Shown piece after piece: positions 32,061 to 44,564 of a stretch of 64,000 nt of DNA; position 1 is the first letter of the stretch; every line of letters starts with the position of its first letter. Below the pieces are notes generated by a model that was not told where the DNA came from, did no database searches, and saw nothing but the letters and a program-made list of their open reading frames with translations. Made by a program: the position numbers and the translations under genes. The stretch spans positions 112,333-176,332 of the IMG/VR virus record IMGVR_UViG_3300028734_000012; one strand, 5' to 3'. Source of the stretch: a virus.

Positions 32061-32460
32061 AGGAATTAAATTCTTTTATATTATATCCATAAGAATTAAG
32101 CCAATCGGCTACTAGATGACGATGGCAAAAATCTTCTGGTTTTTCGTAACAAATAAGGGCGATACTATCATGGATATTCATATTGTAATATGAAGTATTT
32201 TTCATCAAATCTGCTAAATCTTTAAGTACTTTTTTATAATCTAGTTTATCTAATACTTCTGATTGGAAATGTTCTATGTAAAAATCATTATCATGATTTT
32301 CTTTCCACTCCATAAAGAATTTATATTTAGGAGCAAGTTTCTTATATTCTAATCCATCCCATCCTTTAGGACTTTTACCACAAATTGCAATTGGAATAAT
32401 GTTTGGTGTAAGATTCTTTATATTAGAAAAATAACTTGTATATATCATTTTATACTCCAT
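32059..32460 (-). CDS. DUF488-like protein
   Basis: IYTSYF, YKKLAP, LICYEKP..FCHRHLVADWL. Confidence 0.75.
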   Translation of the reverse strand: MEYKMIYTSYFSNIKNLTPNIIPIAICGKSPKGWDGLEYKKLAPKYKFFMEWKENHDNDFYIEHFQSEVLDKLDYKKVLKDLADLMKNTSYYNMNIHDSIALICYEKPEDFCHRHLVADWLNSYGYNIKEFNS

Positions 32461-38578: not shown

Positions 38579-41500
38579 TTATATGTGATGAAAACTGCCT
38601 ATATTCCAATATCCTTTATTCTGAAACACATGCTCTGCAAAGATTATATCATATTTTTCAATTGGGCTTTCTTCATATAATTCCGATGCCATATAAAACG
38701 CTCCATGCTTTCCAGAACCAATTGATTGTGTTCTAAGACTATATTTCCATACTTTGTTAGGAACTTTGCTAAACCTATCTATAATAGGTCTAATTTCTAA
38801 TACAACTAGTTTTCTACGTTCTTTTTCTTCCTGTGAGTGTGAACATAGATTAATATAGCCTAGAAACTCCAATTGTGTTAAAATTTTGTCTTTGTATGAA
38901 AAATCTTGTATAGTTTGACAGTTTAAAAAGTCGTCGCATTCCTGCAATATATTTCTCACATTCAATTTTGTAAAAGATTTCTCGCTTTCTGTTGAGTTTC
39001 GTAGTACAATATTATATAGAGTTTGTTTACTTTCGAGTTTAGTCTTGCTAATTGTTTTAGAATTTCCCTGTTTAAAGAAGTCAAACATATCAACAATTCT
39101 AAGTAATTTCATAGAATTTCCAAACTCTTCAAAGAAATCTAATTTAATTAGAATTTCAAGCTGTCTTGAATTAATTTGGATATCTCTAATATCATACAAT
39201 AAATCAGTAAAGGTATTATATGTATTATTTCTTAAACTATACAAATCATCAGCACAATTTTTATTTAAAAACTTAATTGATTGCATACCTTTATAAATTG
39301 ATTTAGTGCTTATGTCAAATGAGTATTCAGATTTACCATATCTAAATTTAGGCTCAACAATCTCTATCTTTAATAATTTAGACAATTCTGTCCCATTTGA
39401 AATGTCTTCTTCTGTTTCAGAACAATTTAAAAATGCAGTTAAAAACTCATAAGGGTGATAATAACGTAAGTATGCACATAGATATCCTAACATGCAATAT
39501 GCGATACTATGGTTAAGTCCAAACATATATGAACTTGCATCTTCGATTATCTTTAGGAATATCTTTGCTTCTTCTTCTGATATCTCTCTAGGCTTATCAG
39601 AGACCTTGCAATAACCCTCTAAGATGTTTGGTAGCGCTTTCTGTAATCTATCAGCATCCTTACGACCAATGGCACGACGGGTATTATCAGCTTCACTACC
39701 AGATAGTCCACAAATATCAGTTAAGAATTTAATTACATCTTCTTGATAGACCAGATAACCTAGATTGTCCTCTAACAATTTATCGATAATTGGTGATGGA
39801 TTATGGTTAATTATATGTTTACTTAGACTATCTCTGTACGATGCACCAGATGGACGAATCATAGCCGTAACAAGTGACATATCCTCAATAGATTTTGCAT
39901 CAAATTTCTTTAATGTATTAAATGCAAAAGCAGATTCAAATTGAAATATTGCAGTATTAGATTTTTTCATATCAGCCCATACGTTTTCATCATTCCAATC
40001 AATCTGATATGATAACGGATATTTTTCACCAATATATTCATAAGTCTTTTTAATGATACCGACATTCTTTAATCCTAAAATATCATATTTAGCAAGTCCA
40101 GTTTCATGAACGCATTCCATATCTAACTGCATAATTACATTCCCATCATTTACGAAAGTACCATAATTATCAGCTAATGTAATTGGAGAAATTACAATTC
40201 CTGCTGGATGTTGGCTTTGAGATATAATAGTTCCTAACATTCCTTCAAAGTAATAAAATATCTTAGGATACTTTTCTCTGCATTTATCAGCGTTAGCTTC
40301 GTATTCTGTTTTTATCGTTTTCATAATTGCTAAATTATATGGGCTTTCACTTTTATTTAACTGTGGATTAGCCTTACACCATAAGAAGTCTAACGCTCTC
40401 CCTATATCATCAATTGTACCTTTGTCTGATATAGTTCCCATTGCTAAAACAAATGCTGTCTTTGGCTGTCCAAAATGAGTAATGATATGTTCGTATATCT
40501 TAGCCCTATCATCTTTAAACACATCAATATCGATATCTCCGATTTCCTTACGGTCTTCATTACAAAACCTAGAAAATACAGTTTTCCATCTAATAGGATT
40601 TAAATCAGTTACATCGGTAACATATGCGACACAGCTACCGCCACAACTTCCTCTGCTGAACCCAATAGGGATACCGTTCTCTTTACACCAACAAAGAATT
40701 TCTGACATTGAAAGCATAAACCCTAACATATCAACCTTTTTAAATACCCTTATTTCTTCTTGAATATTTATTTCAAACTTTTCTTTTTGGCTCATTGGGA
40801 TTATGCCATTTTTAAGTTTTTCTTTAAACATTTTATCGATACGCTTAATAAATACTTCTTCATCATTATCGTACATTCTAGGATATTTTATTGATGCATC
40901 CAGTACAATTTGTTCTATAGTACTTGCCATAACATTTGTATTTTCTATTGCTTCTAATATTATATCCATTGGTAATGAGTTTTGCACTATAAAGCTATGT
41001 ACAAGTTCATCATATGTCTTATATGTTAAATCATAATCGTCTTCATTGCTAAACTCAATTTTTTTAGATTTCTGTAATATACTACGGCATTCTGCTTTAT
41101 AGCTATTTAAACTATGTGTATCTGTTCCTGCTATTAATGGCTTATTATATTTCTTTGATAAGTCATATAGGCTCTTGTTAAAACTAATCTGGTCTTCTGT
41201 ATTATGGTACTGAATTTCATAATAATCATAATGTTTTAACAGTTTATCAAAGTAATCTTTAGTCTCATCTATTTGAGACTGGTTGAAAAGAATTTCATTT
41301 CTTATTTTTAATCCGTCAAAATTAGGGTCTTCTTCTTTGGCTTCAAGAAGTTGGCTTTGTAACGATTCTATTTTTTCTTTAATTGGGGTTATGGTATTCA
41401 TTAACTTATTTAATGGAGAAGCTAAACATGCTGAAATTTTTACGATATTATCAGATACACCTAAAAATTCATCAAAAGTTAATCTTGGTTTATAGTAAAA

Positions 41501-41872
41501 ATGGTCTGGTTGAGTAGCTAGTCCAACTAAAGTATTTAGTTCCTTTAATCCCTCAAAGTTCTTTGCTAATAAAACTGTGTGATAATTATCTCTAACTTTA
41601 TATGGTTCATCTTCATTAGTGCTATCAAAGTTATCATGAAATAATTTTTCAGTTAAATACACTTCACAACCATGAATATATTTAATTCCATTCTTTTCAC
41701 AGTACATCTTTTTGGCAACCCAATTGTAGATATTACCTTAACCATGTTCAGTAGAAGCAATTGCCTTTTGCCCCAACTGAACACATCTGTCCACATAATC
41801 AGTAAATTTAGTACAGCTATCCAATAAAGAATAATCTGAATGCGAGTGATAAACTACATAATTATCTTTCAA
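38579..41872 (-). CDS. dnaE: DNA polymerase III alpha subunit, with an in-frame TAA at 41740-41738
   Basis: PHP motifs HSHSDYSLLD and TEHG*GN upstream of the tracked ORF, in frame; GCEVY, GTDTH, SRGSCGGS, FSRF, DIDID, HPAG, KYDILGL. TTG start after AAAGGAG. Confidence 0.92.
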
Positions 41873-42572
41873 TAGAATCATCTCCTTTATAATTAAATTC
41901 TCCGAACAGTTCAATTTCTTTATCTTTTCTTGCCTTAATTGCTTTTTCTATAGTATCAAAACTTCCTATATTAATATTTTTGTAATTATACATAATCCTT
42001 GCTATATATTGATTACCAATTTGCGCTATACCTTTATATCCACTAGTGTTATTGCTATTTATTCCTCTATTTATACCATTAGTTGATTTATTAGCTAAAC
42101 GTAAATTATTCCTTCTGTTATCATTTTTATTTGTATTTTTATGGTCAATTATTATATTAGAATCATTAATATCTAATATAACTCGATGTAAACGATAAGA
42201 AGAATTATGTTCATTTTTTTGACTACTTATAATATAATTTTGGTCATTTTCTAGCCATGTAAAGTCTTTGATTTTATCATAATCAACTAAATCAAAATAA
42301 AAGTTTTTATCAGTATTTGTAGTCCATCCTATTCCATATTCATTAGTTAAATCATATTTATTATATTTTCGTTTTGCTTTAGAAGTCATTTCTTTATGTA
42401 AACATCCACAAGATTGTGTATTCATTTTCTTTAAATTAGAACCTCTAACTATAATATCGTTTCCACAATCACAATGACATAACCACCTAGTTTCCCCATT
42501 ACCTACTACATCATATTTACTGATAACCAATAATTTACCAAAAACTTTATTAGTTAAATCAACCCTAACCAT
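41862..42572 (-). CDS. Free-standing HNH-AP2 homing endonuclease
   Basis: FGKL.V...WLCHCDCGN...SCGC; LHRVI..IDHKN.NKNDNRRNNLR; NTSGYKGI AP2 domain. Confidence 0.88.
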   Translation of the reverse strand: MVRVDLTNKVFGKLLVISKYDVVGNGETRWLCHCDCGNDIIVRGSNLKKMNTQSCGCLHKEMTSKAKRKYNKYDLTNEYGIGWTTNTDKNFYFDLVDYDKIKDFTWLENDQNYIISSQKNEHNSSYRLHRVILDINDSNIIIDHKNTNKNDNRRNNLRLANKSTNGINRGINSNNTSGYKGIAQIGNQYIARIMYNYKNINIGSFDTIEKAIKARKDKEIELFGEFNYKGDDSIER

Positions 42573-42578
42573 TTATTT

Positions 42579-44564
42579 TTAATATTCACCGCATTCACTT
42601 TCATTTAAATTATCGCATTCTAATTTTCTTCTCCCAACTAGTATCCCATTGCTACCAAATTTAGTGGAAGAGTATTTAATTGAGCCATTATCCCAATTAT
42701 ATTTCTTATAAATATCATCACTACTACCATATAATCTACGGGTAGCTTTATCGTATCTTAGCCCCATACGATAGCCCTTTTCCCCTAATGTTCTGTCTTT
42801 AAATACTGTGAATTGTCTATCAAAGTTTTCTTGTAATAATTTTTTATCATATGTCTGTTCTAGCCCGTAAATTCTATCAGCCATATTTACAATATTAGAA
42901 GTTCCTAAGATATCATACTCATTTAAAGGTGTTCCAACTTGTGGTTTTCTTGGATGTGCTACTAAGTGAATTGTGCAACTATTTCTCTTTGCAAAGTGAA
43001 TCAATTCATTCATAAATTCTACTTGAACAGCCGTCAAATCTGCATCAGCAATACCCTTAAAATTTAGACACAACCAATTGTCTAAAACAAATACTCTTGT
43101 ACCTCTTTTCTTATACATATCTTTCATTCTGCTAAAAACATCTAATGGGCTTGTTAGTAATAAATTATCGTATACAAACATTCTGTTCTTGTAGGTCTCT
43201 TTAATCTTCTCAACTGCCTGTGTAGTAGGCTTATAATACTTAAATCCGTTAGGATTAGTGAACTCTATAACGTGGTCTCTTCCTGCCGCCTGTGATAGTA
43301 TCCAATTTAACATCTGTGATGTAGTGCTTTCTGCATTAAACCAGAATACTGATTCTCCTTTATCTACTGCATCAAGCACACAAGATTGTGCAATTAGTGT
43401 GGTCTTTCCTACACCACTGTAAGCCGTCCAAATATTCATCGTACCATCTATGTAGCCATAAATCTTAGAATCTAAATCACGTAGTCCTGTTGATAAGTAA
43501 TGGGTCTTTTCAATATCAAATTCTTCTACTGTTGTTAGGTCTACGATATTTTCAAGAGGAACTTCTTCTGCGTTATTAATTAATTGGAGTATGTCACCTT
43601 TACCACAACTTAATAAAATATTATTTGCATCTGTTTTTCTAATGAATACATTCTCGCTAAATGTTTGATAGTATGCTTCGACTTTATCTTCTTGTTCAAC
43701 TGTTGGCTTAATAACTTTACAACGATATTCACCCAAACGATTAATGGTATTTTTTAATCCTTCTTGCCCTGCTGAATCATTATCAAACCATAATATAATT
43801 TCTTTAAAATTTTCAAGGAAATCATAGTTAAATTCAATCCATCCTAAATCATTTGCACCACCGTTAATTGAACATACATTAGAATATCCCGCTTCAACAC
43901 AAGCTAAAGTATCTTGATATCCCTCTGTAATTACAAGTGGTTTTGTAATATCTACTTTATTACTATTATATAAGATAGGACACATAGATACTTTTGGTTG
44001 CCACCACATCTTCATTTCTCCATGTTTAATAGCATGTGATGGTCTATATTTAACTGCTAGTAATGTATTGTCTAAGTCTCTAAGTTCATATACTATATTA
44101 CCATGAACATCCTGTTTAACATCCATGTAATCAAGCGTTGCCTTTGATATACCACGCTTTGCCAGATAGTCTTCTACTTGTGACCTATCTGTATTTGTCT
44201 CTTCCCGTGGATAAATATAGCCTTTAAAATAATCCTTTCTATCTTTTACACTTTGACCATAATCTTTAACATCATAGCCCATATCAAGTTCTTCAAATAA
44301 TCTTTTTAAAGCTTTCTTATAAGTACCTTCTAATGTAGTATATAAATCTAAAATACCAAAGTTCTTACCACATCCGAAACAGTGGAAATAATGCTCTTTT
44401 GTATTCCAAGAAAAACTAGGTGTAGATTCATGATGAAAAGGGCAACACCCTTTTAAATTTGCTTCATCCCATTGTTCGAGATTCAATTCCTTATTAATGA
44501 TAAAAGCCGCATTATCGCCTAGCTTGTCTTTCGCTTCTTGAATTTTCTCAAACAAATCTGTCAA
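42579..44564 (-). CDS. Primase-helicase (CHC2 Zn finger + TOPRIM + DnaB-like; T7 gp4/Twinkle type)
   Basis: CPFHHE.TPSF, FHCFGCG, ITEGYQD, FDNDSAG, AYSGVGKTT, LVAHPRK. Confidence 0.92.
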   Translation of the reverse strand: MTDLFEKIQEAKDKLGDNAAFIINKELNLEQWDEANLKGCCPFHHESTPSFSWNTKEHYFHCFGCGKNFGILDLYTTLEGTYKKALKRLFEELDMGYDVKDYGQSVKDRKDYFKGYIYPREETNTDRSQVEDYLAKRGISKATLDYMDVKQDVHGNIVYELRDLDNTLLAVKYRPSHAIKHGEMKMWWQPKVSMCPILYNSNKVDITKPLVITEGYQDTLACVEAGYSNVCSINGGANDLGWIEFNYDFLENFKEIILWFDNDSAGQEGLKNTINRLGEYRCKVIKPTVEQEDKVEAYYQTFSENVFIRKTDANNILLSCGKGDILQLINNAEEVPLENIVDLTTVEEFDIEKTHYLSTGLRDLDSKIYGYIDGTMNIWTAYSGVGKTTLIAQSCVLDAVDKGESVFWFNAESTTSQMLNWILSQAAGRDHVIEFTNPNGFKYYKPTTQAVEKIKETYKNRMFVYDNLLLTSPLDVFSRMKDMYKKRGTRVFVLDNWLCLNFKGIADADLTAVQVEFMNELIHFAKRNSCTIHLVAHPRKPQVGTPLNEYDILGTSNIVNMADRIYGLEQTYDKKLLQENFDRQFTVFKDRTLGEKGYRMGLRYDKATRRLYGSSDDIYKKYNWDNGSIKYSSTKFGSNGILVGRRKLECDNLNESECGEY

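Follow-up and report, generated by a model that had tools for sequence, protein, structure and literature searches.

The interrupted dnaE locus

The DNA analysed here, referred to as the window, is the final 64 kb of the 176,332-bp uncultured-phage record IMGVR_UViG_3300028734_000012 of IMG/VR, which has a G+C content of 30.6% and is about 89% complete. On the minus strand of the window lie, in this order, a primase-helicase gene (42579-44564), a free-standing gene for an HNH homing endonuclease of 236 aa (41862-42572; protein P0123), recognized through PHROG and Pfam matches, and dnaE, whose start is overlapped by 11 nt by the stop of the HNH gene. A search of the whole 176-kb record gave dnaE as the sole polymerase-family match.

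The first part of dnaE consists of 44 codons on the minus strand, running from TTG 41872 to a proposed take-off codon for glycine (41741-41872), with a ribosome binding site, AAAGGAG, at 41882-41888, 9 nt ahead of the TTG. It carries the metal-ligand motifs HxH, D and EH of the PHP domain, includes the sequence YHSHSDYSLLD, and matches positions 2-38 of the Pfam PHP profile. The take-off codon, GGT (41741-41743, minus strand), is followed by an in-frame TAA (41738-41740), which is the whole coding gap of the window allele, and then by a second GGT (41735-41737), the proposed landing codon. Across this site the minus strand reads GCT TCT ACT GAA CAT GGT TAA GGT AAT ATC TAC AAT TGG, or STEHG*GNIYNW. 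Past the TAA, 1052 codons are open in the same frame when the landing GGT is counted; the second part of dnaE proper starts at AAT and comprises 1051 codons and a stop (38579-41734, minus strand), which encode the rest of the PHP domain (profile positions 50-149), Pol III alpha, the finger domain and HHH. Its first in-frame ATG is at 41707, where gene callers begin a product of 1042 aa (P0001), and no Shine-Dalgarno sequence is present upstream of this ATG. The preliminary description of this DNA had reported GGT-TAA-GGT inside the TEHGN motif of dnaE, with 44 in-frame codons, an RBS and a PHP motif upstream and an intact polymerase downstream; its coordinates and its minus-strand reading are correct on each of these points.

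TAA is a normal stop in this phage, ending 86 of the 122 long open reading frames of the genome, compared with 8 of 122 that end in TAG. ARAGORN finds 22 tRNA genes, in arrays at 5.7-7.3 kb and 76.9-82.6 kb of the record and so outside the window, among them a tRNA-Gly(UCC) and one tRNA with the anticodon CUA, which reads UAG only. The latter, called ‘Pyl’ by ARAGORN, is an amber suppressor and lies on the complementary strand at G000:C1 6145-6237. No tRNA with the UAA-reading anticodon UUA is encoded in the record according to the same program, and an alternative genetic code or a suppressor tRNA was rejected as an explanation, as TAA is a normal stop and has no tRNA to read it. A search of the record for genes interrupted by TAG found none that was convincing, the two in-frame TAG candidates being unlike interrupted genes. 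Elsewhere, the dnaE of one Logan assembly (ERR9717606; L020:2380-2410) has an in-frame TAG in place of a Thr/Ser codon at about codon 10 (HLH*ELSLLD), with no extra bases, which could be a case of TAG recoding.

Authenticity and recurrence of the insert

The site of the interruption is highly conserved. EHGN is found in 113 of 117 dnaE relatives that retain an N-terminus, drawn from a collection of 5.8 billion proteins, while the remainder read NHGN, EHGK, EHGY or EHSN, and none of the 117 has an indel at this position. Compared with these relatives, the window therefore has exactly two extra codons, or 6 nt, as had been proposed. An HMMER alignment with Pol III alpha from Thermus (2HPI) places a two-residue gap opposite the same two codons. 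Scanning the whole 176-kb record for a stop between long open frames that is flanked by matching codons identified dnaE as the only real gene with this arrangement; of the rejected candidates, that at 84405 is an antisense frame of another gene and that at 32385 is AAA TAA AAA followed by an RBS.

The sequence of the site is identical in three other assemblies of this phage: the Logan assembly of SRR9021243 (9129 of 9129 nt identical), ENA ERZ27249832 (15 SNPs elsewhere over 9.1 kb) and JGI contig 3300029998. Exactly the truncated 1042-aa gene-caller product is found on 13 contigs. An assembly error, which had been listed among the alternatives, is excluded by the agreement between these assemblies. 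Variation of another kind is seen in the region that encodes the catalytic DIDID motif (40454-40532, minus strand), where 14 SNPs, clustered and mostly synonymous, separate an ENA assembly (L018) from the window, in what looks like a short recombination tract. In the same patch a JGI contig (L019) lacks 31 bp between ACAT/GCAT microhomologies, a deletion that splits dnaE into 409 and 620 aa.

Further interrupted loci were located through homologues of the HNH protein and through scans with degenerate patterns of the interrupted motif. These reveal GGT-TAA-GGN at the same codon in two other dnaE backbones, on many contigs. The first backbone, with GGT TAA GGC, is represented by Logan SRR32122083 (L028), OBLI01008317 (L111) and a pig-gut metagenome (L183), all of which have an HNH gene upstream of dnaE; the second, with GGT TAA GGA, is represented by a 143-kb IMG/VR contig (L110) and two further runs (L181, L182), none of which has the HNH gene. 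All six translate as TEHG*GNIYNW. The take-off GGT and the TAA are the same in all interrupted alleles seen, and the landing codon varies, so that the identity of the two flanking glycine codons emphasized in the preliminary description applies to the window (GGT/GGT) but not to its relatives, in which the landing codon is GGC or GGA. Matches to the looser patterns were mostly due to chance, and after filtering with tblastn only L110 and a frame-changing allele (L310, described below) were left among the matches listed. Close relatives are lacking among GenBank phage records, where the best protein identity is 46% and neither the 43-aa ORF nor the DNA of L110 finds a match.

Evidence of the interruption is also present in gene calls. 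ORFs of 43-44 aa equivalent to the first part of dnaE and ending in TEHG are called in other assemblies, and 12 protein clusters, comprising more than 130 sequences, have the Met just past the site as their first residue, which is the trace that interrupted alleles leave in gene calls. As gene callers either truncate these polymerases or report orphan ORFs of 43-44 aa, on hundreds of contigs, annotation pipelines miss them. Among the matches listed from viral and genome collections and from the pattern scans, there was no dnaE with a two-codon insert of sense codons at the site.

Other irregularities were observed in the dnaE genes of this group. Three loci have a second interruption further downstream, giving 693 aa followed by a 159-aa ORF in L110 (918-3624), 638 aa, a 155-aa ORF and then the rest of the protein in L029 (3662-6672), and 681 aa followed by a gap in L025 (950-3835), which suggests additional insertion elements in dnaE. 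A large and widespread dnaE clade (P0030-P0120; L021-L023:2440-2500) has no ATG, GTG or TTG before the conserved NYTAYHVH; its start is likely to be a CTG 8 nt past GGGAGG, and gene callers begin at an internal TTG or ATG instead.

Association with an HNH homing endonuclease

The protein encoded upstream of dnaE matches two HNH endonuclease families, PHROG 374 (1e-42) and PHROG 99 (4e-38), and scores 23.9 bits against Pfam HNH_3, just below the cut-off of 24.8. Residues D143, H144 and N165 are invariant among 30 homologues, and the gene is present as a single copy in the record. Of the HNH-AP2 label initially given to this protein, the HNH part is borne out by the PHROG matches, but the AP2 part is not borne out for P0123 itself, PF00847 being matched by some of its homologues.

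Homologues with 56-62% identity to P0123 occur at loci L025-27, L028, L029 and L310, and one with 40% identity at L111. All of these are encoded directly upstream of a phage dnaE, as far as which the arrangement is constant; the gene further upstream varies and encodes a primase-helicase, a DHH/RecJ-like or a HAD-like protein. At 80 IMG/VR loci with more distant homologues (at most 44% identity) none adjoins dnaE, and the association is therefore limited to the close subclade and L111. The HNH gene is absent from the nearest relative, P0002, and there is turnover and loss among the relatives.

The state of the EHGN site follows the presence of this gene. All six dnaE lineages with an adjacent HNH gene have an altered site, four through the insert and two through replacement of Gly by Ser (GG to TC), giving CAT TCA AAT and CAT TCT AAT; EHSN occurs otherwise only once among the 117 relatives. 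Lineages without an adjacent HNH gene have an altered site in one case of 14, the L110 lineage, which has retained the insert, and the other 13 keep CAY GGN AAY. A Fisher test on this association gives about 2e-4, for lineages that are not independent of one another. The preliminary description had predicted that the insert would co-occur with the upstream HNH gene; this was the case, more strongly than expected, with the insert found at the same codon in other dnaE backbones and the closest HNH homologues all adjacent to dnaE. The pattern fits, as we infer from these alleles, a nuclease that would recognize the conserved GAR CAY GGN AAT region and whose carriers would be immune to it. Only one Ser allele (EHSN) without a known adjacent HNH gene was seen, at positions 1-171 of a 3.4-kb contig (L180; Logan SRR29243444), where a 56-aa fragment of an upstream ORF (ending ...KEQKEVFG) has no match to a PHROG family.

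Three observations bear on how the insert is inherited. In a tree of dnaE built from the sequence after the site, interrupted alleles are interleaved with the near-identical uninterrupted P0276, P0282, P0253 and P0260, the uninterrupted P0002 falls next to the window, and at least six changes of state are needed. The identity between L028 and L110 is 90-97% in the 129 nt that precede the TAA and drops to 77-83% right past it. L028 and L111 have near-identical dnaE genes, whereas their HNH genes are just 42% identical. The mosaic tree, the drop in identity at the TAA and the exchange of the nuclease gene together indicate a mobile cassette, which is transferred and exchanged as one unit. It comprises the HNH gene, codons 1-44 of dnaE and the insert, which forms its 3′ edge.

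The dnaE sequence downstream of the site is under strong purifying selection, with pN/pS values of 0.04-0.12 between pairs of stop-bearing alleles. The 10 codons directly past the stop differ among these alleles by synonymous changes only. This is weak support for their translation since the insertion, given that the cassette ends at the insert and the divergence of these 10 codons may be older than it. The interrupted dnaE is real, recurrent and under selection. Besides an assembly error, the possibility of a dead scar raised at the outset is also excluded, given the many assemblies and lineages that carry the insert, the purifying selection downstream, and the position of dnaE as the sole polymerase.

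An allele that changes the reading frame

IMG/VR 3300012974_000015 (L310) has an allele of a different length, which reads ACT GAA CAC GGT TAA ACAT GGC AAC ATT TAT AAT TGG. It has 10 extra nt, with a 7-nt gap between the Gly codons, and the polymerase continues in the +1 frame, which is open for more than 1000 codons and has its first ATG, GTG or TTG at codon 108. The ATG closest to the stop is in the wrong frame, and the sole strong RBS (AAAAGGAGGTG) precedes the first piece of 43 codons. CAY GGN is repeated on both sides of TAAA. The 10-nt allele was read on one contig; other assemblies support it indirectly, through the same N-terminal ORF on 11 contigs and the same 899-aa gene call in ENA. 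Clustering at 90% groups this ORF with others of 43 aa, at least 14 different ones in all, each of which ends in TEHG; one of them is present on 465 contigs. The HNH gene of L310 (2175-2576) is truncated to an ORF of 133 aa, whose match to the window protein is confined to residues 69-228 of the latter, so the nuclease may be decaying here while the insert is retained.

As this allele changes frame and offers no start for 108 codons, neither readthrough nor restart in frame can make its polymerase, and on this sequence what is left would be a +1 frameshift or a hop. Take-off at GGT and landing on GGC in L310 would give TEHGNIYNW, while a +1 frameshift would give TEHG-KHG-NIYNW.

Proposed translation across the stop codon

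We consider it probable that the insert is a minimal translational bypass, which would restore TEHGN in the protein while shielding the genome from the phage's own nuclease, and which would be a small analogue of the mobA/gene 60 system. For the fuller proposal, on balance we lean towards a natural and selected stop-hop in which ribosomes of a Firmicute-type host would routinely slide 6 nt (10 nt in the sister allele) over UAA to make the sole replicative polymerase of the phage, with the minimal signal for this being the terminal piece of a mobile HNH cassette, which would use it to stay immune to its own nuclease.

The 6 nt, which can be written as GGTTAA or equally as TAAGGT, form the 3′ end of the mobile HNH cassette and disrupt GAR CAY GGN AAT, where the nuclease probably recognizes or cleaves its target. 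With this region broken up, the genome of the carrier would not be cut. Ribosomes would initiate from the strong RBS that precedes the 44 codons and translate until GGU occupies the P site and UAA the A site, where a fraction of them would escape termination. The peptidyl-tRNA(Gly) would then unpair, the mRNA would slide by 6 nt, and the tRNA would re-pair with the next GGN before decoding resumed at AAU. Nine nucleotides would in this way specify one Gly, and the product would have a normal TEHGN, with the junction peptide ...AIASTEHGNIYNWVAK. Landing on GGC would use the same tRNA by wobble, and landing on GGA, in the L110 lineage, would pair two of three bases. Among single mechanisms, a short hop would account most economically for the 6-nt and the 10-nt alleles alike.

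An RNA element may be involved. RNAfold predicts a hairpin at 41744-41784 (minus strand) with the His codon at the end of its 3′ arm, immediately before the take-off codon, and with a free energy of -18.7 kcal/mol over the containing 42 nt and z = -6.0 against 300 dinucleotide shuffles. Such a hairpin is predicted in all interrupted alleles, with z values of -3 to -6; the same helix recurs in L310, L028, L110 and L111 at -16.3 to -19.0 kcal/mol, and covariation amounts to one compensatory pair, from U-A to C-G. A similar hairpin is predicted in 2 of 12 uninterrupted lineages as well, so that a role in the hop is only suggested. Such a hairpin 5′ of the take-off codon might speculatively aid the forward slide, as has been proposed for the 5′ stem-loop of T4 gene 60.

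Several points count against a hop. The GGT/GGA pair of L110 would not be read by the same tRNA(Gly) under standard wobble rules, and as UAA competes strongly for release factors, the yield of a hop could be very low for a sole polymerase. [quoted passage not shown] In favour of a hop, a Gly-tRNA in gene 60 constructs can land on GGU, GGC, GGA or GGG (bioRxiv 10.1101/2024.12.09.627546). Ribosomes can hop over a stop flanked by matched codons in constructs tested in E. coli, but a natural in-frame hop of this kind is not known (PMC5009743).

An alternative, which we regard as unlikely, is that the polymerase is made in two pieces, with a 44-aa peptide ending at the TAA and the large part re-initiated near the stop or at ATG 41707, after which the pieces assemble into a functional PHP domain, in the manner of the nuclease-split nrdA of phage Aeh1 or of T4 gp39/gp60. 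In favour of this, a split gene would require its stop to be conserved, genes in pieces are known to arise through nuclease cassettes (bioRxiv 10.1101/2022.08.31.505936), an ATG is kept 10 codons downstream in all 6-nt alleles, and TAAGG resembles a partial Shine-Dalgarno sequence. However, ATG 41707 has no Shine-Dalgarno sequence of its own, and a start there would lose the conserved GNIYNWVAKK. TAAGG is too near the only nearby near-cognate codon, an ATY 4 nt away, and was rejected as a restart RBS since the spacing is too short and the motif is absent from L310. That locus also lacks the ATG, reading KWAYC, and has no canonical start for 108 conserved PHP codons; nor does the nuclease gene lie between the two pieces. 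Restart at ATG 41707 had been named as an alternative from the start, and it is likewise disfavoured here, by the missing Shine-Dalgarno sequence and by L310.

It is similarly improbable that a near-cognate tRNA decodes the UAA at low frequency to give TEHG-X-GN, with the stop acting as a throttle on the level of polymerase. The window insert is in frame, the phage carries many tRNAs, and solved PolC sequences differ from DnaE right past the HG of the motif, so this region may tolerate change. Against this, UAA is the tightest and least leaky of the bacterial stops and would be unexpected in a selected leaky readthrough, and the sole suppressor-like tRNA has the anticodon CUA and reads UAG rather than UAA. 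Seven of the nine single-base changes of TAA produce a sense codon and would raise the yield, yet TAA is invariant in the interrupted alleles, no allele with a sense two-codon insert was seen among the matches listed, and none of the 117 relatives has an indel at the site. Readthrough would also be of no service to the 10-nt allele of L310, and of the readthrough alternative initially put forward only a form confined to the in-frame window allele survives.

Mixed recoding, in which L310-type genes would shift by +1 at GGU-UAA-A and the 6-nt genes would rely on readthrough or hopping, is very unlikely. The duplication of CAY GGN around TAAA in L310 means that a +1 shift would yield an in-frame insert of three residues, and, as prfB illustrates, shifts of this kind are promoted when a stop codon occupies the A site; tRNA(Gly), however, would re-pair poorly on GUU after a +1 slip, and two mechanisms would be needed where one hop would explain both alleles and restore the consensus in both. 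That the insert is a non-functional scar, the polymerase gene being dead in these phages or the stop an artefact, is barely credible: all the sequences are metagenomic and one JGI contig (L019) has a separate 31-bp deletion in dnaE, but the stop recurs in many independent assemblies and several lineages, more than 1000 downstream codons remain open under strong purifying selection, and the record has no other polymerase.

Comparison with known systems

To our knowledge, translational bypassing is in use in very few places, namely T4 gene 60 and its homologues and the mitochondria of some yeasts. A hop of the kind favoured here would, if true, be shorter than any other natural bypass, and the mobA/gene 60 strategy would have arisen a second time, independently. 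The gene 60 solution would then have evolved more than once, with an untranslatable insert in an invariant motif protecting its carrier while translation repairs the damage. At about 60 nt, the locus would also be a small, naturally recurring system in which to study the minimal signals that make a ribosome ignore a stop and slide, with natural variants that have inserts of 6 nt or 10 nt, landing codons GGT, GGC or GGA, and the nuclease gene present or absent.

The 50-nt translational bypass of T4 gene 60 reportedly lies within a MobA HNH homing-endonuclease element. The dnaE arrangement resembles gene 60 in having a Gly take-off codon, a stop directly after it and a Gly landing codon past the gap, and in placing the insert at an invariant residue of an essential replication enzyme with an HNH homing-endonuclease gene adjoining. 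In both, the distribution is patchy and mobile, and by analogy the dnaE insert plausibly blocks self-cleavage. The insert bypassed in gene 60 gives protection from MobA and persists once the nuclease has been lost or replaced (Manning & Atkins, bioRxiv 10.1101/2022.08.31.505936); the dnaE insert is likewise kept where the nuclease has been lost, in L110, or swapped, between L028 and L111. The differences are substantial. The gap between the codons is 3 nt in dnaE (7 nt in L310), compared with 47 nt in gene 60, and is too small for a take-off stem-loop, which is impossible in 3 nt, or for an internal mini-Shine-Dalgarno sequence. The host gene is dnaE, in its PHP domain, rather than a topoisomerase. 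The dnaE nuclease gene lies upstream of a whole gene that it does not split, and there is no sequence homology to the gene 60 cassette.

Other systems share single elements of this arrangement. The synthetic stop-hops of E. coli (Weiss et al. 1987; PMC5009743) have matched or synonymous codons around a single stop, as in dnaE, from which it follows that 9 nt would encode one amino acid; they are artificial and low-level, whereas the dnaE arrangement is natural, conserved and in an essential gene. The byp elements of Magnusiomyces capitatus mitochondria (PMC5009743) differ in being 27-55 nt long, in having an unused codon in the A site, and in having no link to a homing endonuclease. In Aeh1 nrdA/MobE and T4 gp39/gp60, as in dnaE, a homing-endonuclease cassette accompanies an interrupted essential gene whose parts are still functional; in dnaE, by contrast, the second part lacks both an RBS and a start of its own, and the two parts are not separated by the nuclease gene.
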